Positions 3,379 through 59,908 of a stretch of DNA of 64,000 nucleotides are shown piece by piece (positions within the stretch are counted from its first letter, which is position 1; each line of letters starts with the position of its first letter). The notes beneath the pieces were generated by a model, which did not search any database, was not told the origin of the DNA, and saw only the letters and a list, made by a program, of their open reading frames with translations. Position numbers and translations under genes: made by a program. Location: the NCBI GenBank assembly GCA_964561855.1, contig CAZLQP010000004.1:1341-65340 (forward strand), written 5' to 3'. This DNA comes from an uncultured Burkholderiales bacterium. Its GTDB lineage: Bacteria > Actinomycetota > Acidimicrobiia > IMCC26256 > JAGPDB01.

Positions 3379-3396
3379 GGAGGGTCAGTCCTCCGG
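3379..3396. repeat. Single REP core, family A (GGAGGGTCAGTCCTCCGG)
   Basis: Exact match to the core found at 25601..25618, 37340..37357 and 58080..58097. Lies in the intergenic region between the surface-protein gene start and the rpf leader. Confidence 0.8.
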
Positions 3397-3584
3397 AAGG
3401 GTAGTTTATAGTTAGCACTTAGAGTTGCGATAACTTGTCTTAAATGAACTAACTTCCGACTTTTTTCAAAATTTTTATAATCCCAGGTAGATCCACAGAT
3501 AGTATCTATCTCTCGGGGTTCATACGAGGTCAAAACGGACAATATGGTACATCAGTAAGCTTGAAATGTTTGAAAAAAGCAAAC

Positions 3585-3710
3585 TAGCTTGATTCTCCGT
3601 CGCTTTTGTAGACAAGCCCGGACCCGGTGAGTTCAGTTAAGGGGAACTGAACCCAGGCACGGAGACAAAAGAGGCCCGCTGCCCACTTACTGCAGCGTAA
3701 TACCCACACT
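3585..3710 (+). promoter_or_regulatory. GC-rich structured leader; candidate c-di-AMP (ydaO-yuaA class) riboswitch upstream of the Rpf-domain gene
   Basis: Locally GC-rich in an AT-rich genome. Contains GAUUC, CCGGUGAGUUC (cf. GGGGUGAAUC), an 8-bp hairpin GUUCAGUU/AACUGAAC, ACGGAGAC, and CCCGCUGCCCACUUACUGCAGCG (cf. CCCGA-CCGACAGCU(A/C)ACCUCGUA-GCG). The match to the consensus recalled from memory is only partial. Confidence 0.35.
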
Positions 3711-12784: not shown

Positions 12785-12861
<77 letters not shown>

Positions 12862-13324: not shown

Positions 13325-13460
13325 AGTGCAGTTCTCCGGTCTTTTACTATTCAGTGTTTACATTATTTGAATCAGCCAAAGAGCTAGTTTAGAGACTAAT
13401 TTTTGCTTGGTTTTCTCTGAAATCTAAGGAAACTGACCTAAATCAGATTTATTATTGGTG

Positions 13461-13521
13461 TCGTCGGGCTTATAACCCGAAGGTCGTTGGTTCAAATCCA
13501 ACCCCCGCCACCAATTAAACC
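13461..13521 (+). repeat. Duplicated 3' portion of the tRNA-fMet gene (att-like direct repeat of 12809..12869)
   Basis: 61 nt identical to 12809..12869 except one base in the anticodon loop (CTCATAA vs CTTATAA). There is no 5' acceptor/D-arm, so it is not a functional tRNA. It is followed by its own hairpin ACCGCAC..GTGCGGT plus a T-run (13519..13546). Confidence 0.85.
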
Positions 13522-13654: not shown

Positions 13655-16600
13655 GTGACTCTTATTCGGCGTTTGATGGTTGGCTTAATTGTTGTAGCAT
13701 TGTTCTCTTTTTCTGCTCAACTTTTTACAATAAAAGAAGCATCAGCATTGACCTTTACCGTCACCAACACAAACTCTACGGGTCCAGGATCATTTGTTCA
13801 AGCGGTACTTGATGCCAATGCTTCTGCTGGAGATGATACCATCGCATTCGATATTCCAGGTCCGGGGCCTCATATTATTTCAATGACGTCAGTTCTATCT
13901 ATTACAGATACACTCACTATCGATGCTACAGGAACTGGTGGTTCTGTTTGTGCCACGAACGAAACTCCGGCATCATGGAATGTGCAGTTGGATTTTAACT
14001 TAGGCGTAAATGCTCGCTTACATTTCGAGACTGGTTCGGATAACTCATTGGTTCGAGGACTAAGTCTCGTTGATAATGCAGATACTCCAGCCTTTATTTA
14101 TTCAGACAATGTTGGATTTGAATGTAATGCTTTTCAATTGAATCCAGATGGAACAGAAGTTTCAACCGGAAGTGGATACGTATACTTCAACCCAACTGCC
14201 AGCGGATACGTAGGAGGCCCAGATGTCTCTAATCGAAACTATTTCTTTGTTATTAGTGGGGTTCTAATCGATGGGGACGGTGGAGTCAACGTAGAGAATA
14301 ATTATTTCGGTCTGTCACTTGATGGATCATCTTCATCGAACATTGTGAATACATCTCCACATGTGAATCTTCGAAACGGTGGTACAAATGTCATCGTCGA
14401 GGATAATGTTTTTGGTGGAGGTTATCAAGCTATTGGAGGTTTCAACCTTACAGGAGATGTAAATCTTACTGCTCGTGGCAACAAAATAGGTACTACATCA
14501 TCTGGCTTAACGGGTCTTGGTCTCACTTCCACCGGAATTTATTTACATGGATCACTAGGAAACATCGCTATAGGTGGACCAACAGTTGACGATCGAAATG
14601 TCATTGCATCCAATAGTGGACATGGAATTTCCGTTATTGGCGAATCTGGAACGAGAGATTTTACGATTGAAAACAACTACATTGGTGTTTTAGCAGACGG
14701 AACAGGAGATGGTAACGGTTCTAACGGTATAGAAGTTACTTCAAGCAATCTAACTGTTGTCGACAATGTAATTTCAGACAATGGTGGTACGGGAATTGTT
14801 GGTTATGGGCCAAATGCAACTGTCCAAGGTAACAAAATTGGTACAGATCCTACAGGTGCGACAGGACTTGCTAATTCGCAAGGAGGAGTGCATCTATATC
14901 ATGGCGCATCAAATACAAACTGGACAGTTGGTGGAAGTATCGATACAGGTAATCTGATTGTAAATAATGGTGACGGTCCTGGAGTAAGAATTTATCCATC
15001 AAATGGGTATGAATCAACTGTAGATATTTCGTACAATACGCTCACTGGCAATAACGGAAATATCACATTAGATAATGGGAACGCCCAAAATATTTCTGGG
15101 TCGATTACTAACAATGTTATTGATGAATCTAGAGCACACGGGATTTTGGCATATTCGATCGGTGAACTAATGATTCAAGAAAACACAATTTCTAATTCTG
15201 ACTTGGCTGCAATTTCCTTAATCGGAGGCGATCACACAATTCAAGATAATACGATTTCTGACTCAACAACCTATGGAATTTCTTATGCGGCTGATTCAAC
15301 GGCTTCGGTAATTGATGGCAATGATATTTCCAACAGCGTTTTAGACGGAATTTATCTCACAGGCGGAATCGATGGAGATGTTCTCAACAATACAGTGACT
15401 AACTCAACGTTAGTTGGAATGAGAATTCATGGCGCGAATGTCAAAGTTGCAGGAAATACAGTCACTGAATCTGGTGAAGATGGAATAATTCTTGCATCTA
15501 GCAGTCAGTTCGATGTTCATGACAACATTGTGACAGATAATGTTAATAATGGTATTGAAACCGAGAATGGTTCAACTGGTCCGATATATAACAACATTAT
15601 TCACTCGAATGGAAACTTCAATCTTGATATCGGAAATGATGGGGTGAATAGCAATGACAATGGTGATCTCAATGATCCATTAAATCATCCATTAATTCGA
15701 GGTTTGAATGTCAATGGTGGAAATACGACCGTCATCTTTACTCTTGATGGCAGGGCGGGAGATTACCGTTTTGATATTTGTAATAACCCAAGCGGTAATC
15801 CTTCGGGGGGTGCATGTGAAGTCTTTTTAGCTACACAAACATTTAATGATGTTTCATCGGGAAATAATCAGTTTGAAATTGTTGTTTCAGGAACAGGGTT
15901 TGACCCTGAATTACTTTCTATTCAAAGTGTTAGACGAGAAGGTGGAGTAAACGTTCAGTCAAGTGAATACGGTGGATATCAACAATATGGTGTTGATTTA
16001 CAAGTCAACTACATACAAGCTGGTTCGACATTTGGAAACATAACCCATGTAGGTCCTGGAGATGAATTCGGTGTGCCCGGCGGGGTAAAACCTTATAGCA
16101 TGATGGTCCAGTTCTGTCATGTAAATGGAGAAACAGTCACTTCATTTAGTGTAAGTACATCCACAGTCAGATTTTTGATTTCTGATTTGGTTCTTTTTGA
16201 GGATTATTCCTCTGTCACCAATTTAGGATCAATTGATGACGAAGGTCTTTGGCAAGGTGAAATGCAATCTGGGGATTGTATCGTAATGTTAGTAATAGGA
16301 GAAGTGACGGGTGCTGCAGGTACTGATATTTCTTTGACTTTTGATGTGGAAATGCAAACCCTTGCCGGCGGAATCTCAGGTGAGGAATTAGATCCATCAA
16401 ATAACACAGGAACTATCACTTTACCTATCACTGATCAGCCGGACATCGTCATGGAATCAAGACTTTTGACAGAAGGCGAAATTGTTCCTGGTACGGAAGT
16501 TGAATACGAACTTCAAATCACCAACCTAGGGCCAGGTTCGTCGAATGCAGGTTTCCTCATGCTTGCATTTTTGTTGCCTGATGGAGCTGTTTTCAATGGT

Positions 16601-17455
16601 GTCGGTGATCCAGTCCCTGGTGACGGAGTGGGATTGATGGATGGAACAATGTTTGGTCTTGATCCTAGTGGGTGTACAGAACCTGTTATTGCGAGTTCTG
16701 TTGCTCCTGGCTTGGCTGCTTATGATGGCCAACTAGTTCGGTGTGTGATTAGTGTTCCGACGCCTGCTGAGCCCGGATTTTCTGCGAGACTCAATTTGGA
16801 AATGACAGCAGGGTCAGGTTTTGTTTCTGGATCGACACGAGCAATTGCAGTAGTTATTGCCTTTGATGAGTCGGAATCCATAAGTTTCATAAATCTATTT
16901 AGTGCTGGACAAGATGGTTTTGTTCTTGGATTAAACAATATCGCTTGGCTGACCTATGACGCAGACCCTTTGACTGTTACTATCAATCGTTGTAGTGGAA
17001 TTTCCGCAGTCGTACTTATTAACGATGCATGTTTCACCATTACATTTAACAAAGAAATCTATGCGCCTTCGTTCACAGTAGACGATCTAGTCCTCGAAGG
17101 TGGCGGAACTATCTACTCGTTTGTTCAAAATTCTTCGACACAATGGACTGTAAGACTTACTGGTATGACACCAGGTGGTCAAGTTCGTCTTTTGCTTGGA
17201 CCAGCTAGCGTAATTGATTATTCAGCCATTACAAATGGATCACAAGTGCTCGGAGAAAATGTTGTGCGATTTGGCACAACAGATAGTAGCTCTGGAGAAG
17301 GTAGCTCTGAAGGAAGTTTGGAAGGTACATCAAATCAACTTCCAGCGACTGGTTTTGGCACAGATATCATCACACCAATTTTAATGTTAGCCCTAGGACT
17401 TATGCTTACAAGACGATTTCGACCACGAACTAATCAAGTCACCAATAGCCCATAA
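13655..17455 (+). CDS. Giant LPXTG-anchored surface protein with parallel beta-helix (PbH1-like) repeats
   Basis: 1266 aa with GTG start and a signal peptide. The N-domain GPGSFVQAVLDANASAGDDTIAFDIPGPGPHII is related to the other two surface proteins. Dozens of repeats of type NNxIxxNxxxGI follow (NTISDSTTYGISY, NDISNSVLDGIYL, NTVTNSTLVGMRI, NIVTDNVNNGIE). The C-terminus has LPATG, a hydrophobic helix and RRFRPR. Confidence 0.85.
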   Translation: MTLIRRLMVGLIVVALFSFSAQLFTIKEASALTFTVTNTNSTGPGSFVQAVLDANASAGDDTIAFDIPGPGPHIISMTSVLSITDTLTIDATGTGGSVCATNETPASWNVQLDFNLGVNARLHFETGSDNSLVRGLSLVDNADTPAFIYSDNVGFECNAFQLNPDGTEVSTGSGYVYFNPTASGYVGGPDVSNRNYFFVISGVLIDGDGGVNVENNYFGLSLDGSSSSNIVNTSPHVNLRNGGTNVIVEDNVFGGGYQAIGGFNLTGDVNLTARGNKIGTTSSGLTGLGLTSTGIYLHGSLGNIAIGGPTVDDRNVIASNSGHGISVIGESGTRDFTIENNYIGVLADGTGDGNGSNGIEVTSSNLTVVDNVISDNGGTGIVGYGPNATVQGNKIGTDPTGATGLANSQGGVHLYHGASNTNWTVGGSIDTGNLIVNNGDGPGVRIYPSNGYESTVDISYNTLTGNNGNITLDNGNAQNISGSITNNVIDESRAHGILAYSIGELMIQENTISNSDLAAISLIGGDHTIQDNTISDSTTYGISYAADSTASVIDGNDISNSVLDGIYLTGGIDGDVLNNTVTNSTLVGMRIHGANVKVAGNTVTESGEDGIILASSSQFDVHDNIVTDNVNNGIETENGSTGPIYNNIIHSNGNFNLDIGNDGVNSNDNGDLNDPLNHPLIRGLNVNGGNTTVIFTLDGRAGDYRFDICNNPSGNPSGGACEVFLATQTFNDVSSGNNQFEIVVSGTGFDPELLSIQSVRREGGVNVQSSEYGGYQQYGVDLQVNYIQAGSTFGNITHVGPGDEFGVPGGVKPYSMMVQFCHVNGETVTSFSVSTSTVRFLISDLVLFEDYSSVTNLGSIDDEGLWQGEMQSGDCIVMLVIGEVTGAAGTDISLTFDVEMQTLAGGISGEELDPSNNTGTITLPITDQPDIVMESRLLTEGEIVPGTEVEYELQITNLGPGSSNAGFLMLAFLLPDGAVFNGVGDPVPGDGVGLMDGTMFGLDPSGCTEPVIASSVAPGLAAYDGQLVRCVISVPTPAEPGFSARLNLEMTAGSGFVSGSTRAIAVVIAFDESESISFINLFSAGQDGFVLGLNNIAWLTYDADPLTVTINRCSGISAVVLINDACFTITFNKEIYAPSFTVDDLVLEGGGTIYSFVQNSSTQWTVRLTGMTPGGQVRLLLGPASVIDYSAITNGSQVLGENVVRFGTTDSSSGEGSSEGSLEGTSNQLPATGFGTDIITPILMLALGLMLTRRFRPRTNQVTNSP

Positions 17456-18937: not shown

Positions 18938-19576
18938 ATGACTTTAAAGGTTATCTCTAAGATTTGGTTCTCAATCCTTGCTCTTTCTGTTGCATGGGTG
19001 ATACCGGTCCAGGCGGTGTTGAATTTCCAGGAAGAAACCGGGATGTTTGCTGAGAATTATGCTCGGGTGTTTAATATGTTTTGGTTCTTTACAATTCTGT
19101 CTAATATCTTGGTGGGCTACGTAAGTTATCGAATTGTATTAAGTGGGGTCGAACAAGGTGCGAGGTTCAATGTTGCAAAGCACACTGCTTTAGTTGCTAT
19201 AACTGTTACGGGAATTGTTTATCATTTGCTCTTAGCTGCAGATGCGAATCTCAGTGGCCTAAATGTCGTTACCGACTTTTTCTTACATACTTTTATTCCG
19301 CTTGGTTATGTACTTGGCTGGATAATCTTCAACAATCGTGGTCAAGTGAATGCGAAGGTTGCAGGAAAGTCTTTGTTGTTTCCTATTATTTGGGCAGTGG
19401 CTGTCATGATTCGCGGACCGATTGTTGATTATTATCCATACAATTTTATGGATGTAAGAGATCTTGGGTATGCAGAGGCGCTTATAACCATGGGATTTGT
19501 AACTTTGTTTTTTGTAGCCTTAGCCTTCGGCTACTTTCTTCTCGACAAACTCTTAGAGAAAAGGTCCGTCCTCTGA
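18938..19576 (+). CDS. Integral membrane protein (FAR-17a/AIG1-like / Pr6Pr-like, tentative)
   Basis: Six hydrophobic helices. FWFFTILSN and DYYPYNFMD resemble that family as I recall it. The stop codon TGA (19574..19576) lies inside the left arm of the 19557..19645 palindrome. Confidence 0.55.
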   Translation: MTLKVISKIWFSILALSVAWVIPVQAVLNFQEETGMFAENYARVFNMFWFFTILSNILVGYVSYRIVLSGVEQGARFNVAKHTALVAITVTGIVYHLLLAADANLSGLNVVTDFFLHTFIPLGYVLGWIIFNNRGQVNAKVAGKSLLFPIIWAVAVMIRGPIVDYYPYNFMDVRDLGYAEALITMGFVTLFFVALAFGYFLLDKLLEKRSVL

Positions 19577-19645
19577 ATCTTGCGATAAATTGCACTAATG
19601 TCGCTAATACAAGTTATCGCAAGATTCAGAGGACGGACCTTTTCT
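19557..19645. repeat. Perfect 31-bp inverted repeat (family D, GGTCCGTCC core) acting as bidirectional terminator between convergent genes
   Basis: AGAAAAGGTCCGTCCTCTGAATCTTGCGATA (19557..19587) is the exact reverse complement of 19615..19645, with a 27-nt spacer. It overlaps the stop codons of both flanking genes. Confidence 0.85.
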
Positions 19646-20691
19646 CAGTCGTCGGATTTGGTCATGTGGAAGATGCCGGTTGCATTGCCTGCATCAAAAG
19701 CTAGATCGACGCTACCATCTTCTTTGTTTTTTCTAGTGATGAATTCAAAGAATGAGCCTGGAACTTCTTTATGCACAATCTCATTGTCATCTAATCTGAA
19801 ACTTCTAGTGATCGGATCTGCTTTGTATGCGGTCTGCATTATATTTCCTGTCTTAGAAACCTCGACAGTATCTTTCATTGGATAACCGAGTTGTTTTTGT
19901 TCTTCAGATAATGCCATTACGTCAGCAACTCTATCTGTCGCATGGTTAAAAGCATTTCCTTCAGTTGCAATCCAAGCCATTTCTGCAGAATGCTGTAACA
20001 GCTCGTTATAATCTGACAAAAGTGGTACAGGATGTTGACGATCAAAAGCGCGAGCGATGTTTTGTAAAAGATTCCCACATTTATTTCGTGGAAGGTATCC
20101 GTTTTCACCAATGAAACTCAGATCATCAAGAGTCTCTTGGTTAAGAGGATCGATTGATTCTTCAACAACATCAATTACAGCTTTTTCAAAATCATCATTT
20201 TCGAACTTGTCAGGATGAAGTTCACTCACAAAATATTGAGGTATCACTTGAGGATAATCAGCATGAGTGTAACTTCTACCTGTCATCTTGAGTTTTGTTA
20301 AAGGATATGTCTCATTGTGGAAATATCCGAGTGGAATTAAGATTCGCGTAAGCGATTCCTCTCCTACAGGTAAATCTCCGTTTCGTAGATGGTCTACTGT
20401 TCTCACTGCGCCGTGATCCAAAAAAATTGTTTCTCCCTCAGAGTGTTTTTGCTCAAAGTACTTCTGTGCATGAGGTACACGTTCGAGCAAATCAGCATAC
20501 AAAACTAGAAACAAAGAAAATGCGATATGGGCCCTTGAAACGTTCTCATCTCCGAAAGTACCAAGAGGTTCAGGGATCAGAATCGTTTGAGAGAATTCGT
20601 CGACTCTTTTGCCGCCAATTATTTCTCGGATGATATTAAAAACTGTAATGTCAGTGCTAAATAATGACATTTCGTTGGAACTGTTTTCCAT
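19645..20691 (-). CDS. hglS: DUF1338-family protein, 2-oxoadipate dioxygenase/decarboxylase (HglS)-like
   Basis: About 350 aa with the FLDHGAVRT metal-binding motif characteristic of DUF1338/HglS. Genomic context is other lysine-catabolism genes. Confidence 0.6.
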   Translation of the reverse strand: MENSSNEMSLFSTDITVFNIIREIIGGKRVDEFSQTILIPEPLGTFGDENVSRAHIAFSLFLVLYADLLERVPHAQKYFEQKHSEGETIFLDHGAVRTVDHLRNGDLPVGEESLTRILIPLGYFHNETYPLTKLKMTGRSYTHADYPQVIPQYFVSELHPDKFENDDFEKAVIDVVEESIDPLNQETLDDLSFIGENGYLPRNKCGNLLQNIARAFDRQHPVPLLSDYNELLQHSAEMAWIATEGNAFNHATDRVADVMALSEEQKQLGYPMKDTVEVSKTGNIMQTAYKADPITRSFRLDDNEIVHKEVPGSFFEFITRKNKEDGSVDLAFDAGNATGIFHMTKSDD

Positions 20692-23323: not shown

Positions 23324-24913
23324 ATGAGTTACACAATACCTACAAGTCTAAAAACAAAGACACCGCCATCGACTTCTGCGATTGCAGATGAGGTGTTGGT
23401 AGTGCTCAAGAAGTTAGATATCGATCTAGCTGCATATGGATTTGAGATGCTAAAAGTACCTAATGCTAATCTTGGAACAAGTGACGGTAAAGTGTCTTTG
23501 CGTACGCCTATAACTGGTCAGGCCTATGCAACCATTAGTGCAACGACATCAACTGATATCGATTTGGCACTTAATGATTCTGGCAACGCATTTAAAGATT
23601 TCCGAGCACTCCCTGCTCCTGTAAGAGGAGAGTTCGTGCGTGTACTTGGAACATTGCTGCGTGAATATAAATCAGAACTTGGTTTTTTGGTATCTATTGA
23701 AGCTGGGAAGATAGTTTCTGAAGGACTAGGTGAAGTCCAAGAAATGATCGACATTGCCGATTTCGCTGTTGGACTATCACGTCAACTTTATGGCAAAACA
23801 ATAGCTTCAGAACGACCACAACATGCGATGCGTGAAACTTGGCATCCATTAGGGCCAGTAGGTGTGATCACTGCATTCAATTTTCCAGTAGCGGTTTGGG
23901 CATGGAATGCATGTATTGCATTTGTCTGTGGAGATAGTGTCGTATTCAAACCCTCAGACAAGACTGCAGTTTCCTCGATCGTGATTCATGAATTGGCAAA
24001 ACGTGCAGCCGCACAGTGTGGGATAAGTCAAGATGTGTCTCAATTAATACTAGGTGGGGTTGAACCTGCAGTTTTACTGGCAGAAGATGACAGGATTTCG
24101 TTGTTGAGTGTGACTGGTTCAGTTGCAGCTGGCGCTGCTTTGGCTCCGATTGTTAGCGCGCGTTTTGGGAAATCCCTATTGGAGCTCGGTGGAAACAATG
24201 CAATGATAGTAACTCCCAGTGCAGATCTTGATTTGGCTTTGAGAGCTATAACATTTTCGGCTGCAGGTACAGCAGGTCAGCGATGCACAACATTGCGCAG
24301 ACTTATTGTGCATAAGTCAGTTAAAGAACAACTAGTTGCAAAGTTGCAAAGTGCATATGACTCTCTTGAAGTAGGCAACCCACTTTGCGATTCGGTTTTA
24401 GTAGGTCCATTGATAGAAGAAAAATCACATAATGCTTTGACTGTTGCGCAAGAAAAACTTGGAGTTGAATCAAAAAGAGAATTCTTTGGTGATTTTGATA
24501 ATGCTTACTATCACCGTCCGACAATTTCTTTTGTTGATAAGAATGAAGAGTTGCTACAACATGAAACTTTCGCGCCTTTGCTTCATGTTGTTGAATATGA
24601 AGAGATTGAAGAAGCGATTGAAATTAACAATAGTGTTCCGCAAGGGTTGTCATCTTCGATCTTTACAAATGATGTGAGAGAAGCAGAATTATTTCTATCT
24701 GCTGTAGGTTCAGACTGCGGTATTGCAAATGTGAATATTGGGCCGTCGGGTGCAGAAATCGGCGGAGCGTTTGGTGGAGAGAAACAAACTGGTGGCGGAA
24801 GAGAATCTGGATCCGATGCTTGGAAAGCATATATGCGCAGAGCGACAAACACTGTCAACTACGGAACTGAACTCCCCCTAGCCCAAGGCGTCCAATTCAC
24901 TCCGGAGGACTGA
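23324..24913 (+). CDS. pcd: ALDH7-type aldehyde dehydrogenase (alpha-aminoadipic semialdehyde / piperideine-6-carboxylate dehydrogenase)
   Basis: ELGGNN and catalytic Cys GQRCT. The C-terminal [45 protein letters not shown] is nearly identical to the antiquitin terminus (...[43 protein letters not shown]). The last codons CCG GAG GAC TGA are REP sequence. Confidence 0.9.
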   Translation: [529 protein letters not shown]

Positions 24914-25618
24914 CCCTCCAAAAGGTTTAAAAGGGACTAATTATCCCTTGATCCACTTAGTTAGATTGCATAATCTTTTAATATGCCATCTAGAAATGCA
25001 ATTAAGTGTTATTCTTCGTATAGTTATTACCATATTTACAATAGAGGAATCGAAAAAAAGAACATATTCGAAAGCGCCGAAAATAAAGAAAAATTTCTCC
25101 GACTGGTTTCTAGATACTTGGACACCGAAAATACTGAATGTGATCGCGACGGTGTTCCGTACAGAAAGTTTAATGATCAAATTGAATTACTTAGCTATTG
25201 CATAATGGACAATCATTTTCACTTTTTAATTTGGGTAGCAGATGATGCTAGATCGCTAAGCGAATTCATGAGGAGTCTTGGAAGCGCCTATACGATGTAT
25301 TTCAACAAAAGATATGATCGTGTCGGTCCACTTTTTCAAAGTCGATATAAAGCCGTGACAATAGGGAATGACAGTCAGCTGCTTCATATAACGCGATATA
25401 TTCACTTAAATCCTGGCCCGTCTTCGTTCGAATATGCTTACTCAAGTCTCGGTCGCTATCTTCAGAAGAGTTCTAACGACGATGTGTTGAACTGCTTAAA
25501 TCCAAAAAGAATCTTGGAGTTGTTTGAAATTGGAAGCTACGAGGATTTTTTAAGAAGTGAATTGAACACTGAATCTACTTGAGTGTGAAATGTACCTTTT
25601 GGAGGGTCAGTCCTCCGG
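24902..25618 (+). mobile_element. RAYT unit: REP-associated tyrosine transposase gene flanked by inverted REPs (family A)
   Basis: CCGGAGGACTGACCCTCCAAAAGG at 24902..24925 and its exact reverse complement at 25595..25618 bracket the 199-aa Y1/HUH transposase ORF. Confidence 0.85.
24983..25582 (+). CDS. REP-associated tyrosine transposase (RAYT; IS200/IS605-like Y1 HUH transposase, COG1943 type)
   Basis: YHIYNRGIEKKNIF, HUH motif in LLSYCIMDNHFHFLIW, FMRSLGSAYTMYFNKRYDRVGPLFQSRYKA, and catalytic Tyr motif RYIHLNP. This is the canonical RAYT motif order. Confidence 0.88.
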   Translation: MPSRNAIKCYSSYSYYHIYNRGIEKKNIFESAENKEKFLRLVSRYLDTENTECDRDGVPYRKFNDQIELLSYCIMDNHFHFLIWVADDARSLSEFMRSLGSAYTMYFNKRYDRVGPLFQSRYKAVTIGNDSQLLHITRYIHLNPGPSSFEYAYSSLGRYLQKSSNDDVLNCLNPKRILELFEIGSYEDFLRSELNTEST

Positions 25619-26989
25619 GGCCTCCGGGAGGGTGGAGAGGATTAGGGTTATGTCTTGAAGGGTTGTTGTTGGGTTGATGATGCAGAATCGGATTACGGTT
25701 TCACCTTTGTGGGTTGTTGGTACGATAAAGGCAAATTCTTTTTGCATTAAACTTTCACACCAGTTTTTATAGTCTTTGGTATCAAAACCTTTTACTTTAA
25801 AAAGTATGACGCTCAACTCAGGTTCTATAACAAGTTCGAGTCTCTCATCGTTTTGAATAAGCTCGGCAGCTTGTCGAGATACATCAATGCATTGTGTGAC
25901 GGCTTGCTTAATTGCATTAGTGCCATGGACTGCCAGTGTAAACCAAAGGGTAAGTCCTCTAGCTCGTCTTGTTAAATGATGTGCATAGTCCGATGGATTC
26001 CAATCAGGAGTTTCGTGAATTGCATCAAGGTATTCTGCATCTTGAGCATGAGCTTTTCGCGCAACTTTGGGATCTTTGTATATCAGTGCTGCGCAATCGA
26101 AAGGGGAGAACAACCATTTGTGGGGATCAATAACGAATGAGTCAGCATTTTCCACACCTTTGAATAAATGCCTTGTCTTATCACACAAGATTGCTGCGCC
26201 ACCATAGGCTCCATCGACATGAAACCAAAAATCATGGTCTTTACATATTTCTGATGTCATATCTAAGTCATCAACATAGCCAGTATTGGTTGCACCTGCA
26301 GATGCAACAACTGCAAAAACTCTATCTAATTCTTCAGGATCAAGATTTTTTATAGTCTTTTGTAATTCTTCGCCAGTTAGGCGAAAGTTTTCATCGCCTT
26401 TTACTTTGATGACATCGATGTCCATTGCTTTAGCAGCTAGGCGAATAGATGAATGTACGCTAGGTGTCGCCAATATAGCAAGGCGCTTTTTCTTGTACTG
26501 AGGTTTTGCTTTTCTAAATCTATATCTTGCAGCAATTAAACCTGATAGATTCGCAGCTGTTCCTCCTGAGACGAATACTCCTCCAGATGTTTTGGGAAAG
26601 CCAATCATGTCAGAGATAAATCTCAAAGCCTGATTTTCAGCAGCGACAACTCCAGCGCCTTCGAGCCAAGTGCCTCCAAACATTGAACTTGCAGAAACCA
26701 CAAGGTCGATTAACGAAGCGGCATTTGCTGGGGCATTGGGTACAAAAGCTAGATAGCGTGGATGGTCAGTAGAAAGTGTTGCGGGAGCGACTATGTTTTC
26801 AAATACATCAAACGCTTTTTGTGGACCTAAACCGTCTTCGTTAATGACGCCTTCGAGTTTGGGTAGAAGCTCCTCTGCAGATACTGGAGTATCTAAAGTG
26901 GGTGGATCTTCTTTTAATCTTTCAATTGAATATTTAGCAATGCGTTCAGCAAGCTCATTAGCTTCATCGTCGAAATGATGTAAATCCAC
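25607..26989 (-). CDS. Group II pyridoxal-phosphate-dependent amino-acid decarboxylase
   Basis: 460 aa with GTG start. Motifs: SGGTAANL, HVDGAYGG, DPHKWL (PLP-lysine). The C-terminal ...EAPED* is encoded by the REP at 25595..25618. Confidence 0.85.
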   Translation of the reverse strand: MDLHHFDDEANELAERIAKYSIERLKEDPPTLDTPVSAEELLPKLEGVINEDGLGPQKAFDVFENIVAPATLSTDHPRYLAFVPNAPANAASLIDLVVSASSMFGGTWLEGAGVVAAENQALRFISDMIGFPKTSGGVFVSGGTAANLSGLIAARYRFRKAKPQYKKKRLAILATPSVHSSIRLAAKAMDIDVIKVKGDENFRLTGEELQKTIKNLDPEELDRVFAVVASAGATNTGYVDDLDMTSEICKDHDFWFHVDGAYGGAAILCDKTRHLFKGVENADSFVIDPHKWLFSPFDCAALIYKDPKVARKAHAQDAEYLDAIHETPDWNPSDYAHHLTRRARGLTLWFTLAVHGTNAIKQAVTQCIDVSRQAAELIQNDERLELVIEPELSVILFKVKGFDTKDYKNWCESLMQKEFAFIVPTTHKGETVIRFCIINPTTTLQDITLILSTLPEAPED

Positions 26990-37285: not shown

Positions 37286-37357
37286 CCGGAGGACTGACCC
37301 TCCAAAAGGGACGAATCGCCTGAGCGATTAGTCCCTTTTGGAGGGTCAGTCCTCCGG
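37286..37357. repeat. REPIN (inverted REP doublet), family A
   Basis: CCGGAGGACTGACCCTCCAAAAGGGACGAATCGC-CTGA-GCGATTAGTCCCTTTTGGAGGGTCAGTCCTCCGG. 72 bp, with one mismatch in a stem of about 34 bp. Confidence 0.9.
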
Positions 37358-39923: not shown

Positions 39924-39954
39924 CCTTTTTCTGGGGGTCTGATCCCCCAAAAGG
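39924..39954. repeat. Single REP, family B (GGGGGTCTGATCCCCC) nested in a CCTTTT/AAAAGG stem
   Basis: CCTTTTTCTGGGGGTCTGATCCCCCAAAAGG directly after the hup stop. Same core as 59039..59054. Confidence 0.8.
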
Positions 39955-46431: not shown

Positions 46432-46438
46432 TTTATTT

Positions 46439-46482
46439 CTATAGGGTCTGACCCTATTTACATATAGGGTCAGACCCTATAG
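46439..46482. repeat. REPIN-like doublet, family C (ATAGGGTCTGACCCTAT)
   Basis: CTATAGGGTCTGACCCTAT-TTACAT-ATAGGGTCAGACCCTATAG, between convergent pyrB and a small membrane gene. Near-identical to 52573..52616. Confidence 0.88.
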
Positions 46483-46485
46483 AAA

Positions 46486-46746
46486 TTAGTAGCCGAGCTT
46501 GCGGTCTTCTTTTTCGGCAGCTGTTATTGCGTAGCCAAAAATTATGGGTAGTGGCAAGATGATGCAGCTTGCAGTAAAGCTGATAATCGACACCCAGGTA
46601 AGCCAGACTGGCCAACCAGTTGCTAAGCAAACGAAAAAAGCGACTATCGATATAACCATCAGACCATAGCCAATGCGCTTAAAGAAGCTGACTTTTTGCC
46701 TTATAGCTTCACGTTTTTCTAAGACCGGATCATCCATTAGCCTCAA
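46486..46746 (-). CDS. Small membrane protein (2 TM)
   Basis: 86-aa ORF with two long hydrophobic helices. Confidence 0.5.
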   Translation of the reverse strand: MRLMDDPVLEKREAIRQKVSFFKRIGYGLMVISIVAFFVCLATGWPVWLTWVSIISFTASCIILPLPIIFGYAITAAEKEDRKLGY

Positions 46747-48189: not shown

Positions 48190-48307
48190 GAGTCTTGGCT
48201 GTGGTTGTGTCTCGAATTGTGTTTCGCGCAGCTTCGCTGACGAGACGAGCCTAAGGTCTCGACTCTCGCTGCAAATGCAATTCGAGACACAACCACAGCC
48301 AAGACTC
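48190..48307. repeat. Perfect 30-bp inverted repeat with structured 58-nt spacer in the ileS upstream region
   Basis: GAGTCTTGGCTGTGGTTGTGTCTCGAATTG (48190..48219) is the exact reverse complement of 48278..48307. The spacer contains CGAGAC..GTCTCG and GCAGC..GCTGC sub-hairpins. GC-rich relative to its flanks. Confidence 0.85.
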
Positions 48308-48362
48308 TCGTTACTGAATATCAATAGGAAAGTAAACAACTAAGTAACTAGACTTGGTACTT

Positions 48363-51300
48363 ATGTCATCTAACGCAAAACAAAACAATATCTATCCTGA
48401 GGTCACTTCTTCTCCAAATATTCCTGCGATAGAAGAAAGCATTATTGAGTTTTGGAATGACAACAAAATATTTCAAGCATCTGTCGAAGGTAAGAAGAAC
48501 AATCCTAAAGACGAAAAAGATCAAGGTGAATATGTTTTTTATGACGGACCTCCATTCGCAAATGGGCTCCCGCACTATGGTCACTTGATTACAAGTTTTG
48601 TTAAAGACACAGTTCCTAGATATCAAACAATGAAAGGTAAACGTGTTCCACGTCGTTTCGGATGGGACTGTCATGGTTTGCCTGCAGAGATGTTAACTGA
48701 AAAAGAACTTGGAGTTTCTGGTCATATTGCGATCAACGAGTATGGCATCGATAAGTTTAACGATGCTTGTCGAACTTCAGTATTACAGTTCACGAATGAA
48801 TGGCGTCACTATGTAACACGAATGGCGCGTTGGGTTGATTTTGATAATGACTACAAGACACTCGACATAGATTATATGGAAAGTGTTATTTGGGCTTTTA
48901 AACAACTCCATGAAAAAGGTCTGGTCTACGAAGGTATGCGCGTGTTGCCTTATTCTTGGGCTGCAGAAACAGTGTTATCGAATCATGAGACCAAACTCGA
49001 TGATTCATATCGTGAACGCGACGATCCAGCGTTGACTGTCGGATTTAAAGTTCGAGAGTTTTCAAAAGAAGCGCAAAAAAAGATCGACATTGTTCCACAA
49101 GGGATGTTAGATGGTGCTGAGATAAATATTCTCGCATGGACAACAACACCTTGGACGTTGCCTTCGAATTTAGCTTTGGCAGTTGGTCCTGAAATCGAAT
49201 ATAGCGTCGTTGTTGGTGAAGACAATGAAAATCCAACTGCATTTATTTTGGCAACGGCAATGCTTGAAAAATATGAGAAAGAATTGCAGGGATTCAAGCC
49301 AGTTACTACCTTGCAAGGTTCAGATCTTGTAGGGACAACCTATGTGCCGATGTTTGATTACTTTGCTGATACTCAAAATGCTTTCCAGGTCTTTGGTCCA
49401 GATTTTGTAACAACTGAAGATGGAACTGGTATTGTACACCTAGCTCCTTATGGTGAAGATGACTTTGCATTATTAACTGCAAATGATATTGAAATTCCTG
49501 TAGCAGTAGATGCTAAAGGCGAATTCGATTCAAGAGTTCCAGACTATCAAGGTCAACTTGTTTTTGATGCTAATGCAAATATTGTGCGCGACTTAAAAGA
49601 GCGTGGGGTAGTACTTCGTCATGATACATATCGCCACTCTTATCCTCACTGTTGGCGTACTGATCAGCCATTGATCTATCGCCCAATGAGCTCTTGGTTT
49701 GTTGAAGTAACGAAAATCAAAGATCGAATGTTGGAACTCAACAAAGATATCAAGTGGATACCCGATCATGTTCAAGAAGGTGCGTTCGGGATGTGGCTTG
49801 AAGGTGCTCGTGATTGGTCGATTTCTCGGAACCGTTTTTGGGGTTCACCAATTCCTGTCTGGAAATCTGATGACCCCAATTATCCACGAATGGACGTCTA
49901 TGGTTCCCTCGATGAAATCGAACGCGATTTTGGTAAACGTCCAACAGATCTACACCGTCCGGAAATAGATACTTTTACTAGACCTAATCCAGATGATCCG
50001 ACTGGAAAATCAACAATGCGCCGAGTTGAGGAAGTGTTTGACTGTTGGTTCGAATCAGGATCGATGCCATTTGCGCAAGTGCATTATCCATTTGAAAACA
50101 AAGAGTGGTTTGATACTCATTTCCCAGGAGATTTTATTGTTGAATACATCGGCCAGACGCGCGGATGGTTTTATACTTTGCATGTTTTAGCAACAGCTTT
50201 GTTTGATCGAGCAGCGTTTAAAGAATGTGTATCTCATGGAATTGTTTTGGGTTCTGATGGAAGAAAAATTTCTAAACGTTTAAAGAACTATCCAGATCCT
50301 CTAGAGATGTTTGACGAGTTTGGATCTGATGCTATGCGCTGGTTATTGCAAAGCTCAGCTATATTGCGCGGTCAAAATCTGATTGTTGATCGAGATTCAT
50401 TTGCGACTGCTACTCGAAAAGCTATCTTGCCTTTATGGAACTCTTATTACTTCTTTACGTTATATGCCAATAGCGATGGAATAGAGGCGAAACACATAAC
50501 TCAGTCTTCCAATATTTTGGATACTTACATTTTGGCAAAGACACGTAAATATATTGAAGAGTTAACTGTGTCGATGGATGCAAATGATATGTTCAAAGCA
50601 AGTGAACTTACGGAATCTCATTTTGATGTTTTAACGAACTGGTTTATTCGTAGAAGTCGTGAACGTTTTTGGCGACATGAAAAAGATCAAGACAAACAAG
50701 ATGCCTATGACACTTTGTTTACTGTATTGAATCTGATCTGTCGTGCAGTAGCGCCATTGTTGCCCTTGGTGTCAGAGAGTATATGGCGTGGTCTCAATGC
50801 ACAAGATGTTGAGCAGAACAATGGATTGAGCGTTCATCTCGAGACTTGGCCTCTAGAAGATGCACAAGCAATTGCGGAAGATGACGAGTTGATCGCTGCA
50901 ATGGATATGGCGCAAGAAATTTGTTCGAACGCATTATCTATCCGACGTGCAAATAATTTACGTACTCGACTTCCATTAAGCGAGGTTGTCATTTCAGGTC
51001 CGAATGCAAAACGTGCGGAGCGATTTTCCGACATCATCCGTGATGAAGTAAATGTGAAAAATGTGGTTGTTCAACTTGATGCAACAGAGCATGGAAAACA
51101 AAAACTGAATTTGGTGCCAAGTGTTATGGCTCCACGTCATGGTGAAAATGCAAAGAAAGTATTTGCCGGATACAAAAAGGGTGACTGGCAATTAGTTGAT
51201 AGCGTGATGACTGTTGGAGGAATAGAACTTCGGCCTGATGAATATGCTTTGGTGTTAGAACCAGAAAATGCTGATAGCTCTAGAGCATTAGATGACCGCG

Positions 51301-51620
51301 AGACAATTGTTACCTTGAATCTTGAAGTGACAAGTGAGCTTGAACTCGAGGGAATAGCTAGAGACGTTATTCGAGCTACGCAAGAGGCAAGAAAGACTGC
51401 GGATCTCAACATTACCGACCGAATTGTTTTGGAAGTTCAAGGCAACGAAAAAGCAGTCCAAGCAGTCGAAAAATTCGAAAACCTAATTTCCAAAGAAATC
51501 CTCGCCAACTCCATCTCCGCAATCTCCGGAGGACTGACCCTCCAAAACGGACAAAACGGAGAAGGTATAGTTGAAGTGGATGGAGCAGTCTTTAGTGTAA
51601 ATGTTGCCGTGAGTAAATAG
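48363..51620 (+). CDS. ileS: Isoleucyl-tRNA synthetase
   Basis: About 1085 aa with HIGH-type GLPHYGHL and KMSKS-type GRKISKRL; editing-domain and anticodon-binding regions of the expected length. ATG 48363 is preferred to TTG 48354. Confidence 0.95.
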   Translation: MSSNAKQNNIYPEVTSSPNIPAIEESIIEFWNDNKIFQASVEGKKNNPKDEKDQGEYVFYDGPPFANGLPHYGHLITSFVKDTVPRYQTMKGKRVPRRFGWDCHGLPAEMLTEKELGVSGHIAINEYGIDKFNDACRTSVLQFTNEWRHYVTRMARWVDFDNDYKTLDIDYMESVIWAFKQLHEKGLVYEGMRVLPYSWAAETVLSNHETKLDDSYRERDDPALTVGFKVREFSKEAQKKIDIVPQGMLDGAEINILAWTTTPWTLPSNLALAVGPEIEYSVVVGEDNENPTAFILATAMLEKYEKELQGFKPVTTLQGSDLVGTTYVPMFDYFADTQNAFQVFGPDFVTTEDGTGIVHLAPYGEDDFALLTANDIEIPVAVDAKGEFDSRVPDYQGQLVFDANANIVRDLKERGVVLRHDTYRHSYPHCWRTDQPLIYRPMSSWFVEVTKIKDRMLELNKDIKWIPDHVQEGAFGMWLEGARDWSISRNRFWGSPIPVWKSDDPNYPRMDVYGSLDEIERDFGKRPTDLHRPEIDTFTRPNPDDPTGKSTMRRVEEVFDCWFESGSMPFAQVHYPFENKEWFDTHFPGDFIVEYIGQTRGWFYTLHVLATALFDRAAFKECVSHGIVLGSDGRKISKRLKNYPDPLEMFDEFGSDAMRWLLQSSAILRGQNLIVDRDSFATATRKAILPLWNSYYFFTLYANSDGIEAKHITQSSNILDTYILAKTRKYIEELTVSMDANDMFKASELTESHFDVLTNWFIRRSRERFWRHEKDQDKQDAYDTLFTVLNLICRAVAPLLPLVSESIWRGLNAQDVEQNNGLSVHLETWPLEDAQAIAEDDELIAAMDMAQEICSNALSIRRANNLRTRLPLSEVVISGPNAKRAERFSDIIRDEVNVKNVVVQLDATEHGKQKLNLVPSVMAPRHGENAKKVFAGYKKGDWQLVDSVMTVGGIELRPDEYALVLEPENADSSRALDDRETIVTLNLEVTSELELEGIARDVIRATQEARKTADLNITDRIVLEVQGNEKAVQAVEKFENLISKEILANSISAISGGLTLQNGQNGEGIVEVDGAVFSVNVAVSK
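51526..51558 (+). repeat. Family A REP arm embedded in frame within the ileS coding sequence
   Basis: CCGGAGGACTGACCCTCCAAAACGGACAAAACGGA matches the 33-nt left REPIN arm (58026..58058) with about 4 mismatches. It is read as S-G-G-L-T-L-Q-N-G-Q-N-G. No right arm is present. Confidence 0.8.
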
Positions 51621-52130
51621 ATGCAAAGCGGCATTAGATTTCGCGAAGCTGATGAAGCGGATGTGAACACTATCGCTACTTTGCTTCAAGAACACTACGA
51701 GTTTATGCGTGAGACTTTTTCCCATACGAGGCATATTATTAGTTGGCCTCATTCGGACGTAGGTTTAGAGTTTGTTTCTAAATTTGTACCTGGAGATGAG
51801 TTGCATAAAAGTTGGATTGCTGAGGATGCTCAAGGCGCGGCTATTGGTTATTTGTTAGGAAAGATATATTCAACGGCTCATCGATCAGATAATCCAATTT
51901 CGGAAATAGATAATATTTTCATCACCAAAGCAGCTCGCGGGAAAGGCGTCGCAAAAAAACTTGTAAATCTTTTCAACGAATGGTCCTTGAAAAATAATGT
52001 TAAGCGAATGAAGGCACAAACTTACGCCGACAATTTTGATGCACATCAGTTCTATGAATCGTTGGGAATGAAGCAAATAGAAGTTATTTATGAAATACCA
52101 AAGTTTGAACTAGAAAGTCAGGTTAAATAA
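51621..52130 (+). CDS. GNAT-family N-acetyltransferase
   Basis: IFITKAARGKGVAKKLV (acetyl-CoA binding R/Q-x-x-G-x-G/A motif), about 169 aa. The start abuts the ileS stop. Confidence 0.8.
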   Translation: MQSGIRFREADEADVNTIATLLQEHYEFMRETFSHTRHIISWPHSDVGLEFVSKFVPGDELHKSWIAEDAQGAAIGYLLGKIYSTAHRSDNPISEIDNIFITKAARGKGVAKKLVNLFNEWSLKNNVKRMKAQTYADNFDAHQFYESLGMKQIEVIYEIPKFELESQVK

Positions 52131-52585
52131 TGAAACGAATTTCAGACTTCTTTGTCTTGTTGGCACAAGTGATAATCGGTTTTATATATGTTTCCTTCGC
52201 AGGTCCTTGGTCGGAAAATATAGTGATACTCCTAGTAGGTACAGTATTGATCGGTACTGGGATCGCATTGGGTATTCGCGGGATTTATGATCTACGTAAA
52301 AGTTTCGCTGTGCATCCCAAGCCTCACGAAAAAGCTGAGTTCATACAGACTGGGATCTATTCCTATGTAAGGCATCCAATGTATAGCGGTTTGATTTTGG
52401 TAGCGATTGGGTTCTTACTTGTTCGCTATAGTCAAGATCTACTCGTGATGTTTTTCTTTGCAATAGGATATTTAGCAATAAAAATCTATATTGAAGAGAG
52501 GTTTTTAAACTCATTCTTTGAAGATTACCGAGAATATTCAAAGAAAACTGGATGTATCTTTCCAAAACGCCTCTATAGGGTCTGA
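52130..52585 (+). CDS. Isoprenylcysteine carboxyl methyltransferase (ICMT)/phospholipid methyltransferase-family membrane protein
   Basis: 4 TM; GIYSYVRHPMYSGLIL and EERFL motifs. The stop TGA lies in the loop of the family C REP. Confidence 0.75.
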   Translation: MKRISDFFVLLAQVIIGFIYVSFAGPWSENIVILLVGTVLIGTGIALGIRGIYDLRKSFAVHPKPHEKAEFIQTGIYSYVRHPMYSGLILVAIGFLLVRYSQDLLVMFFFAIGYLAIKIYIEERFLNSFFEDYREYSKKTGCIFPKRLYRV

Positions 52586-52616
52586 CCCTATTTACAAATA
52601 GGGTCAGACCCTATAG
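52573..52616. repeat. REPIN-like doublet, family C
   Basis: CTATAGGGTCTGACCCTAT-TTACAA-ATAGGGTCAGACCCTATAG. Pairing extends to GCCTC/GAGGC (52569..52620). Confidence 0.88.
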
Positions 52617-52647
52617 AGGCGCTGTAGCTTCGACTAGTATTTAAGCC

Positions 52648-58025: not shown

Positions 58026-58097
58026 CCGGAGGACTGACCCTCCAAAAGGGACGAATCGCATGAACGATTCGTCCCTTTTGGAGGGTCAGTCCTCCGG
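58026..58097. repeat. REPIN, family A (perfect 33-bp stem)
   Basis: CCGGAGGACTGACCCTCCAAAAGGGACGAATCG-CATGAA-CGATTCGTCCCTTTTGGAGGGTCAGTCCTCCGG, located between divergent guaB and argF. Confidence 0.92.
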
Positions 58098-58160: not shown

Positions 58161-59048
58161 ATGGTTAAACATTTGCTAGATATTGACGATTTGTCGATCG
58201 ATGAAGTCAATCAGGTTTTAGATTTTGCATTGAATCCTGACGAGTCTAAGCCATTGAAAGATAAAGGCGTTGCGCTAATTTTTCAAAAGCCATCTTTACG
58301 CACACGCAACTCAATGGAAATGGCAGTGGTCCAATTAGGCGGACATCCCGTCTACATTCAAGATATGGAAGTTGGAATTGATTCACGTGAAAGTATTGAA
58401 GATGTAGTGATGTCTATGGCGCAATATCATGAGATTATTTGTGCGCGAGTTTTTGATCACCTAGTGCTCGAGAGAATGGCAAGCGTTGATGTTGCTCCCA
58501 TCGTTAATTTGCTGTCTGATTCCTCGCATCCGATGCAGGCACTAGCTGATCTATTGACAATGAAACAAGAATTCGGCGACTTGAAAAATAAGCGTGTTGC
58601 ATATATTGGAGATCCAAATAATGTTGCTAGATCACTAGCGATTATCGCAAAAATGTTTGGTATGGAATTTACGATTGCTACGCCAAATGAATATCGTTTT
58701 AGCGAAGATGATTGCAGAGTAATTGATAAATATGGAGGCATCGATTTAACAACTGACGATCCTAAAATCGCCGCGAAAAATGCTGACGTTTTGTACACCG
58801 ATGTTTGGGTGTCAATGGGTGATGAAGAAGAATCAGATATTCGCAAAAGAATGTTCGATGGCTATTGTATCGACTCACAATTGATGTCTGTCGCGAATGA
58901 AAATGCGATCGTGATGCATTGTCTTCCTGCTCATCGAGGACAAGAAATTACTGATGAAGTAATGAGATCAACGCAATCAAGAATTTTTCTTCAAGCACAA
59001 AATCGCATGCACTCGGCCAGAGGCCTCCTCCGCCTTCTGGGGGTCTGA
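58161..59048 (+). CDS. argF: Ornithine carbamoyltransferase
   Basis: KPSLRTRNSME, HPMQALADLLT, DVWVSMG, HCLPAHRGQEI. ATG 58161 is preferred to 58140 given the promoter/SD geometry. The last codons CTG GGG GTC TGA are family B REP sequence. Confidence 0.85.
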   Translation: MVKHLLDIDDLSIDEVNQVLDFALNPDESKPLKDKGVALIFQKPSLRTRNSMEMAVVQLGGHPVYIQDMEVGIDSRESIEDVVMSMAQYHEIICARVFDHLVLERMASVDVAPIVNLLSDSSHPMQALADLLTMKQEFGDLKNKRVAYIGDPNNVARSLAIIAKMFGMEFTIATPNEYRFSEDDCRVIDKYGGIDLTTDDPKIAAKNADVLYTDVWVSMGDEEESDIRKRMFDGYCIDSQLMSVANENAIVMHCLPAHRGQEITDEVMRSTQSRIFLQAQNRMHSARGLLRLLGV

Positions 59049-59099
59049 TCCCCCAAAACAGACAAATCGCATTTGCACCTTTTGGGGAATCAGACCCCC
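59039..59099. repeat. REPIN-like doublet, family B, spanning the stop codons of both convergent genes
   Basis: GGGGGTCTGATCCCCCAAAA-(21 nt)-TTTTGGGGAATCAGACCCCC, with one mismatch between the arms. Confidence 0.88.
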
Positions 59100-59908
59100 A
59101 GATCAAAGGATTGGATTAGGGTGAGGACTTGATCGATCGAATCCGGGTGAGCACAAACTAGCGAGGTGGGGCAGAGCTCGCCTGTGTCGGGGTCGATATC
59201 GAGAGATTCGAATTTGTCGCCATTAGGTTTTCTTATTTCTGCTCCGGCAGCTATTGCACAAGCAGTTCCGGCAGCTATTTCAGCGCCATAATCATTGTGA
59301 ACAATCATTGCTTGGACTCCACCTTTTGCAAAAGAGACCCAGTCCGCAGTTGGCGCCCATGTAGAAAGTACTCGTCCAGTATTTCTTACTAAGTATTCCC
59401 GAAACCTAAGGGCCTCTTCTTGCTCATCATCTTTTAGATAGCCAATCGACATACCAAAAGTGCTTTTGAGTAAATCAACGACAGGGGTAACGGCAGTGTT
59501 TTGTTCTTCACCAACTACACCACAGTGAAAAGTTTTTAACTGGCCTTGTCCGATAACTCCCAAAACAGGTTTGTTATTTTTTGTGAGTGCAATACAACTT
59601 CCATACAGAGGCATTGCATAGGCGAAATTATTTGTTCCATCTAACGGGTCGATATGCCATGCATAATCAGAATTTTGTTGGTAGGTTTCGAGTTCCTCGC
59701 CAAAGATAGTTATATCTGAAAAATTTTCTATCAAAATATCACGAATTATCTTTTCGGCTTCGATGTCGGCATCAGTGGTGACATCGTGGCCTTGTTCGGC
59801 AATGTTTTTTTCTAACAAAGTGCCAAAGCGTGAATCTAGGTATTCAATTGCATGGTCGATAGCTTCACAGGCCACTTTTTTTGCTTGTTCAATGTCGATG
59901 TCAGTCAC
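59090..59908 (-). CDS. Inositol monophosphatase family protein (SuhB/ImpA/HisN-like)
   Basis: EELE..., WHIDPLDGTNNF, and a WAPTADW region, 272 aa. The C-terminal ...DLGV* is encoded by the REP arm. Confidence 0.82.
   Translation of the reverse strand: MTDIDIEQAKKVACEAIDHAIEYLDSRFGTLLEKNIAEQGHDVTTDADIEAEKIIRDILIENFSDITIFGEELETYQQNSDYAWHIDPLDGTNNFAYAMPLYGSCIALTKNNKPVLGVIGQGQLKTFHCGVVGEEQNTAVTPVVDLLKSTFGMSIGYLKDDEQEEALRFREYLVRNTGRVLSTWAPTADWVSFAKGGVQAMIVHNDYGAEIAAGTACAIAAGAEIRKPNGDKFESLDIDPDTGELCPTSLVCAHPDSIDQVLTLIQSFDLGV

Follow-up and report, generated by a model that had tools for sequence, protein, structure and literature searches.

We describe here a short piece of mobile-repeat DNA that lies in frame inside ileS, the gene for isoleucyl-tRNA synthetase (IleRS), in a 64,000-nucleotide stretch of the genome of an uncultured bacterium (assembly GCA_964561855.1, contig CAZLQP010000004.1, positions 1,341 to 65,340), which we refer to as the window and number from its first letter. 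The tract occupies positions 51526-51558 of the + strand and its DNA derives from a repetitive extragenic palindromic (REP) element, 30 of the 33 positions being those of the master arm of a REP family that is dispersed through the window. We consider it very probable that a single REP arm was inserted, or retained, in frame in a surface loop that is prone to insertions and deletions (indels) and that immediately precedes the terminal beta-hairpin of the enzyme, where it is tolerated and is decaying. The result is a clean and well-polarised case of a mobile repeat that has turned into protein-coding sequence in a core translation gene.

The tract and its repeat family

The tract reads CCGGAGGACTGACCCTCCAAAACGGACAAAACG and the 33-nucleotide reference arm reads CCGGAGGACTGACCCTCCAAAAGGGACGAATCG. 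There are 3 mismatches between them and the first 22 nucleotides, which include the hairpin core GGAGG-ACTGAC-CCTCC, are exact. With up to 3 mismatches allowed the arm is found at 5 sites in the window and at none in 100 dinucleotide-preserving shuffles, and the chance expectation is 0 for a match of this quality (22 nucleotides exact, 30 of 33 in total). The original prediction, made from the letters of the window, had recognized this match to the left arm of a REP doublet (REPIN) inside ileS and placed the number of substitutions at about 4; the match is borne out, with a slightly smaller count. It had also stated that the tract is translated close to the ileS stop, as is indeed the case. 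In the ileS frame the tract gives SGGLTLQNGQNG, residues 1058-1069 of a 1088-codon open reading frame (ORF), and 19 codons then follow before the TAG stop. The frame passes the TGA of the REP loop as a CTG ACC, so that translation runs on into the native tail GIVEVDGAVFSVNVAVSK (51564-51620, + strand, stop included), a terminal beta-hairpin homologous to the tails of orthologues.

Each of the three departures from the master arm changes the encoded residue: AAG to AAC (K to N), CGA to CAA (R to Q) and ATC to AAC (I to N). A sister REP copy at 59036-59067, CCCCCAAAACAGACAAATCG, has two of the three variant states (C at 51548, A at 51553), and to judge from this agreement ileS may have received them with a variant source copy instead of acquiring them itself. 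The perfect 9-base-pair tandem noted in the original prediction is present as well, with CAAAACGGA occurring twice (51543-51551 and 51552-51560, + strand) and encoding QNG QNG. Either it is a duplication that followed a shorter insertion of ~27-30 nucleotides, or it is the arm's own imperfect internal repeat (CAAAAGGGA and CGAATCGCA, identical at 5 of 9 positions) modified by point changes. A similar local duplication, AAAAGGTTTAAAAGGGAC, is seen in the REP at 24902-24945, in the 5' flank of the transposase gene described below; this 9-nucleotide duplication or insertion, CCAAAAGGTTTAAAAGGGAC, resembles the QNG-QNG tandem of ileS, and the arm region therefore seems to be prone to slippage.

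In agreement with the original prediction, no right arm accompanies the tract. The best local alignment of a right arm or spacer to the 82 nucleotides past the tract scores 11, against a shuffle mean of 11.5, and a decayed right arm or spacer 3' of the tract was rejected because its score is no better than that of shuffles. When read in the ileS frame in the + orientation of the window both full REPINs produce an in-frame TGA in the spacer, whereas in the opposite orientation both stay open, so that a whole REPIN could have inserted and subsequently undergone an in-frame deletion. The RNA fold of the tract is not stabler than those of shuffles (z = -0.97), and a regulatory RNA hairpin at this position was rejected on that basis.

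The repeats of the window constitute a genuine REP/REPIN family, comprising two near-perfect REPINs and a REP-bracketed gene with a Y1_Tnp domain. The 16-nucleotide hairpin core GGAGGACTGACCCTCC occurs in 8 copies in 64 kb, as against 0 expected. Both intact REPINs are intergenic, with lengths of 33 + 6 + 33 = 72 nucleotides and arms that are 97-100% complementary; one, at 37286-37357, starts one base past a TAA stop and has a single mismatch between its arms, and the other, at 58026-58097, has perfect arms and as RNA forms a hairpin of -72.8 kcal/mol (z = -15). A REP singlet at 3379-3397 (- strand) retains the core and is diverged in its distal part. Inverted 25-nucleotide REP copies at 24902-24926 (+) and 25594-25618 (-) bracket a gene for a Y1 (HUH) transposase of 199 residues (24983-25582, +) that resembles the REP-associated tyrosine transposases (RAYTs). 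Its Pfam Y1_Tnp match is above cut-off (E = 5e-12), the motifs HFH and RYIHLNP are visible, and its only NCBIfam match, to the RAYT equivalog NF047646, reaches 48.3 bits where the cut-off is 80; to judge by its sequence the protein is a distant RAYT-like one. The nearest homologues are ~50% identical and mostly unnamed, two of them being labelled as Candidatus Saccharimonadales metagenome-assembled genomes (MAGs). Short AAGGT-NNN-ACCTT hairpins stand on both sides of the closest of these homologues (~50% identity, some from Candidatus Saccharimonadales), at 2950-2975 and 3650-3670 in locus L005 and at 2925-2970 and 3650-3675 in locus L006, and they bear no sequence relation to the window REP. 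The window showed no second transposase.

The window REP does not fall into the GTAG/CGTC class of REPs, as it has no GTAG and the CGTC in its distal arm is not conserved between copies. A loose scan for further decayed copies in genes returned one extra match, at 16183 with 11 mismatches, which was rejected as an A-rich chance match that lacks the hairpin core. At least three more families of hairpin repeats are present in the window, two with cores GGGGGTCTGATCCCCC and TATAGGGTCTGACCCTATA and one a 42-nucleotide-arm element; related hairpins lie at 39931-39950, 46435-46486, 52568-52621, 59036-59102 and 19556-19646, most of them with a CTGA-containing loop like that of the main REP.

Five ORFs of the window stop on the TGA of a REP-type loop. 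Two of these end ...PED*, with TGA at 24911-24913 (+) and 25607-25609 (-), in the copies that flank the transposase gene, the first supplying the stop of the upstream aldehyde dehydrogenase ORF and the second that of the convergent ORF 25607-26989 (-); two end ...LGV* (59046-59048, +, and 59090-59092, -) and one ...YRV* (52583-52585, +). The claim that the same sequence reads PED-stop in the frame used by other genes thus holds for two ORFs, which end CCG GAG GAC TGA (24913, +, and 25607, -). Where genes converge as a pair, one element receives both ends, one in each arm. It is common in this compact genome for REPs to overlap the 3' ends of genes and supply their stop codons, and ileS is the sole case in which the frame of a REP copy avoids the loop TGA. 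Taken together, the five REP-stopped genes and the ileS insert suggest that REPs routinely remodel protein C-termini in this genome.

Relatives, fold and rival explanations

The host gene spans 48363-51620 (+) and encodes a type-2 IleRS of 1085 residues when translated from ATG 48363, the probable start (the listed ORF, 48354-51620, opens at TTG 48354). The 1085-residue protein is present in NCBI, encoded on a contig of 130,541 bp, and is a singleton at 90% clustering. It scores 843.6 bits against the equivalog TIGR00392 (cut-off 621) and contains the Pfam domains tRNA-synt_1, Anticodon_1 and DUF5915, the last of which (PF19302) spans residues 893-1056 and ends two residues ahead of the tract. 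This domain architecture, with DUF5915 in place of the Zn-binding tail of type-1 enzymes, identifies the product as a type-2 enzyme.

In order to place the insert we have compared the window IleRS with three relatives: L001, from a Burkholderiales-labelled MAG, L002, from an Acidimicrobiia-labelled MAG, and P0001, a 202-residue fragment. The first two are the only ileS relatives found among GTDB species genomes (tblastn, 71-72% identity; 75% over the full length) and P0001 is 61% identical to the window protein. When the last 449 IleRS residues are used as a tblastn query the matches to L001 and L002 stop at query residue 418, ...ANSISAI, which is the residue right before the tract. Over the full length the window protein and L001 align with 74.8% identity in 1,067 columns. 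Apart from a gap of 4 residues near residue 245, this alignment is interrupted internally only by a gap of 13 residues at the tract, exactly where the original prediction had proposed to look for an insertion of 11-12 residues. All three relatives are without the REP-encoded segment, and neither a REP core nor a REPIN-like hairpin was found in the L001 and L002 loci. From the A[N/D] to the D[G/D] turn there are 10 residues in P0001, L001 and L002 and 23 in the window, and the window linker is reduced to exactly 10 once SGGLTLQNGQNGE is taken out. This segment corresponds to an in-frame insertion of ~13 codons (39 nucleotides) at 51525-51563 (+), with boundaries uncertain by 1-2 codons.

A neighbour-joining tree of the C-terminal domain without the tail has the topology (P0001,((L001,L002),W)), where W is the window protein. 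On this tree the pattern can be explained by one insertion or by two deletions of equal length, and a gain in the window lineage is therefore the more parsimonious; with P0001 as outgroup, the alignments support such a gain of the 13-codon segment. Insertion is further favoured since it is the only explanation that accounts for the nucleotide identity to a dispersed repeat. The C-terminal domains of L001 and L002 are 96% identical and carry the labels Burkholderiales and Acidimicrobiia, respectively, and hence at least one of the two taxonomic labels must be wrong.

A search with the last 106 residues against 5.8 billion proteins yielded 7 candidates, one of which scored, a 44%-identical fragment of DUF5915 (the IleRS C-terminal domain), and none with the REP peptide; among 1.84 billion representatives, searched exhaustively, no sequence was closer than P0001 (61%). 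An orthologue encoding SGGLTLQNG, which in the original prediction was the observation that would speak against a REP origin, was not found among the orthologues, the search of 5.8 billion proteins included. The suggestion that an ancient REP had been domesticated as coding sequence is upheld as regards the insertion, which three orthologues lack, and is not supported as regards its being ancient or domesticated: the tract has only 3 differences from the master arm in 33 positions, and two of these states are shared with a sister REP family.

The AlphaFold2 model of the last 229 IleRS residues is of high confidence, with a mean pLDDT (predicted local distance difference test) of 94.3. There is a single low block, model residues 201-210 with a mean of 59, that lies inside the REP-coded residues 199-210; block means in the rest of the domain are 86-98. 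Strands are predicted at 192-199, 213-216 and 219-227 around the insert, and the terminal beta-hairpin (pLDDT 86-92) is packed on the domain. The top Foldseek matches are IleRS2 structures from Priestia megaterium (8c9d and 8c8v), the modelled fold being that of the C-terminal tRNA-binding domain of this enzyme (8c8v, E = 2e-18), and yeast IleRS bound to tRNA (8wnd) is matched as well. The REP-encoded segment is thus predicted to form a flexible surface loop compatible with the fold. The family alignments indicate that the insertion site is intrinsically indel-prone, and the insertion shows that the IleRS2 tRNA-binding domain tolerates additions in the loop that leads to its terminal hairpin.

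As its second possibility, the original prediction had offered a REP insertion that took the place of the original ileS 3' end, the ORF running on through decayed REP into new sequence, which would once have been non-coding. The tblastn match to relatives does stop exactly at the tract, and REP copies in the window do commonly overlap gene 3' ends (the five ORFs above); nevertheless, we consider this very unlikely. The residues past the tract (..VDGAVFSVNVAVSK) align with FTVNV of P0001, FVVDA of L001 and L002 and the family's terminal strand DG-x-V-x-V, the motif FSVNV of the window being the counterpart of FTVNV in P0001, and they are modelled as the confident hairpin described above. The stop of ileS abuts the start of a gene for a GNAT acetyltransferase (51621-52130, +), whose ATG follows directly; this adjacency is kept in L001 (homologue at 7311-7805) and L002, with a gap of 2 nucleotides, so that the position of the original ileS 3' end is fixed and there is no room for a former intergenic stretch. 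By alignment and by model, then, the tract is followed by the native terminal beta-hairpin of 18-19 residues, and the 3' end has not been replaced. In the loop-replacement alternative, which we regard as decidedly unlikely, a longer loop is ancestral and was lost in the relatives, and the REP recombined into or overwrote a loop of similar length. Distant family members have loops of 5-12 residues and an extra strand at this position, and the family hidden Markov model (HMM) aligns the native sequence slightly better than an insert-free version. Such a history needs two independent deletions of equal length, one in P0001 and one in L001/L002, instead of one insertion, and taking out exactly 13 residues restores the 10-residue linker found throughout the clade.

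Chance similarity, or an artefact of assembly (a chimeric join made through a repeat, for example), strikes us as extremely unlikely. The source is a metagenome-assembled contig, and independent Logan contigs of SRR6318357 break at REPIN arms, L004 ending inside an arm at 58055. Against this, the 22 exact nucleotides and the 30 of 33 match have zero chance expectation, the tract has private substitutions and so is not a copy-paste of another locus, and the ORF is in frame with homologous sequence on both sides. The Logan contigs L003 and L004 are 100% identical to the window where they overlap it, the tract itself being outside the overlap, and ileS, the GNAT gene and the upstream gene gave no matches in exact look-ups of the Logan contigs of SRR6318357. 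It is also conceivable, if improbable, that selection favoured the K to N, R to Q and I to N changes as well as the QNG-QNG duplication, and that the loop now serves tRNA binding or regulation of IleRS. The loop is within the tRNA-binding domain and the three differences, all non-synonymous, remove two positive charges and one hydrophobic residue. Three non-synonymous changes in three are, however, not unusual by chance, two of the states are shared with the sister REP at 59036-59067 and were perhaps inherited from a variant source, the loop is low in predicted order, and the closest relatives function without it. We attach a similarly small probability to the intact 22-nucleotide core still being recognized by the RAYT-like protein or the loop having been co-opted by the tRNA-binding domain; were either so, the REP would have a working role in an essential gene and would not be a fossil.

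Several points weigh against insertion of a single, tolerated arm. Its polarity comes from three relatives only, at 61-75% identity, and searches of JGI metagenomes returned no relatives of the IleRS C-terminus and 0 matches to the REP 22-mer. Distant IleRS2 members have an unrelated loop of 5-12 residues at the position of the insert, and the family HMM gives 134.8 bits for the native sequence and 131.6 without the insert; it is because of this unrelated loop that the native sequence scores a little higher, and the profile cannot polarise the indel. Neutrality of the insert is assumed. Finally, the mobile unit is considered to be the REPIN and not the single arm (PMC3116915), and the transposase is under the RAYT equivalog cut-off of NCBIfam, with 48 against 80 bits.

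The following course of events would lead to the present gene. The REP arm would have been delivered on single-stranded DNA by the RAYT-like Y1 transposase encoded 26 kb upstream, a step that we infer by analogy with IS200/IS605 and REPIN-RAYT systems (PMC3116915). It would have arrived as a half element, or as a 72-nucleotide REPIN that later lost its spacer and right arm, and landed 18-19 codons ahead of the ileS stop in a stop-free frame and with a length divisible by three. IleRS presumably tolerated it because the surface loop concerned varies in length across the family, and the ileS copy would now be an immobile singlet that is drifting from the master sequence and has no function of its own. 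It has diverged from the master arm at 3 of 33 positions, as compared with 0-1 of 33 in the REPIN arms, and this higher divergence fits the published pattern in which singlets are more diverged than doublets (PMC3116915). The REP-decorated enzyme is probably expressed and active, given an intact ORF of a normally essential gene; a second ileS may exist elsewhere in the genome.

Surroundings of ileS and the host lineage

A near-perfect hairpin of 118 nucleotides (48190-48307), with 35-nucleotide arms and a 48-nucleotide spacer, lies 56 nucleotides upstream of the ileS ATG. The window has no second copy of it, its RNA fold reaches -88 kcal/mol (z = -10), and it has no match in Rfam, T-box included; it could be a leader or attenuator, or another miniature inverted-repeat transposable element. 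With regard to the downstream neighbour, NCBIfam has a model, NF040702, for a fusion of IleRS with a GNAT domain, a hint that ileS and the GNAT gene may be functionally linked.

Elsewhere in the window, 13655-17455 encodes a secreted protein of 1266 residues with many NxxG/T repeats like those of right-handed beta-helices and a C-terminus made up of an LPATG sortase signal, a hydrophobic segment and a basic tail. The LPATG signal suggests an envelope of the Gram-positive type and, along with the Acidimicrobiia label of L002, points to an actinobacterial lineage, with which the Burkholderiales label of L001 conflicts. No WhiB motif, an actinobacterial marker, was found in the window, and this is uninformative. 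At 13445-13502, 590 nucleotides downstream from the normal tRNA of 12785-12858, there is a weak partial tRNA match (31 bits, model positions 9-63), perhaps a truncated tRNA or what remains of an integration.

Relation to known systems

A survey of GTAG/CGTC REPs has already recorded elements that are read in frame within genes of several species, often close to protein termini or in presumed loops (Di Nocera et al. 2013, BMC Genomics 14:522; PMC3733652). In that survey short REP units or dimers lie wholly inside the ORFs of known proteins, tRNA synthetase genes included, and the supplementary table places a CGTC-1 REP dimer at residues 467-488 of the Erythrobacter litoralis isoleucyl-tRNA synthetase (ELI_13550). 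Tolerated in-frame insertion of a REP is thus already described, and what the ileS case adds is the host lineage, the REP family, the single arm and the position. As with the GTAG/CGTC REPs of the survey, the element is in frame in an ORF and REP termini donate stops to flanking ORFs (PMC3733652). In contrast to them, the window REP has no GTAG or conserved CGTC tag, the donated stop is the TGA of the hairpin loop and not a terminal TAG, and the host is an uncultured, probably actinobacterial lineage. The arrangement is also distinct from that in E. litoralis, in that a type-2 IleRS carries one arm in its C-terminal domain rather than a dimer in the enzyme body. We found no description of a REP/RAYT system from this probably actinobacterial, poorly sampled lineage.

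Rickettsia palindromic elements (RPEs), the classic analogue on a larger scale, are likewise palindromic mobile repeats that sit in frame in genes, housekeeping genes among them, and keep the ORF open, with an encoded peptide that is thought to be compatible with the fold (PMC10969869, PMC3733652). RPEs are about 100-150 bp long with a conserved peptide, whereas the ileS insert is a half element of 33-39 nucleotides; they occur in dozens of copies in genes, as against one case in 64 kb here, and they have no known cognate transposase, while a RAYT-like gene is present in the window.

In organization there is also a parallel to REPIN-RAYT systems (Bertels & Rainey 2011; Bertels et al. 2017), in which REP doublets form long hairpins and copies of the same REP stand next to a single-copy Y1 transposase gene (PMC3116915, PMC5581495), and in which singlets, being more diverged than doublets, are taken as immobile remnants (PMC3116915). 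The window has the same ingredients, namely REPIN doublets, a REP-flanked Y1 gene and a diverged singlet. It differs in that the transposase is distant from the proteobacterial RAYTs behind NF047646, and copies are counted in the 64-kb window only. The ileS case leaves existing knowledge of REPs, RAYTs and IleRS unchanged.

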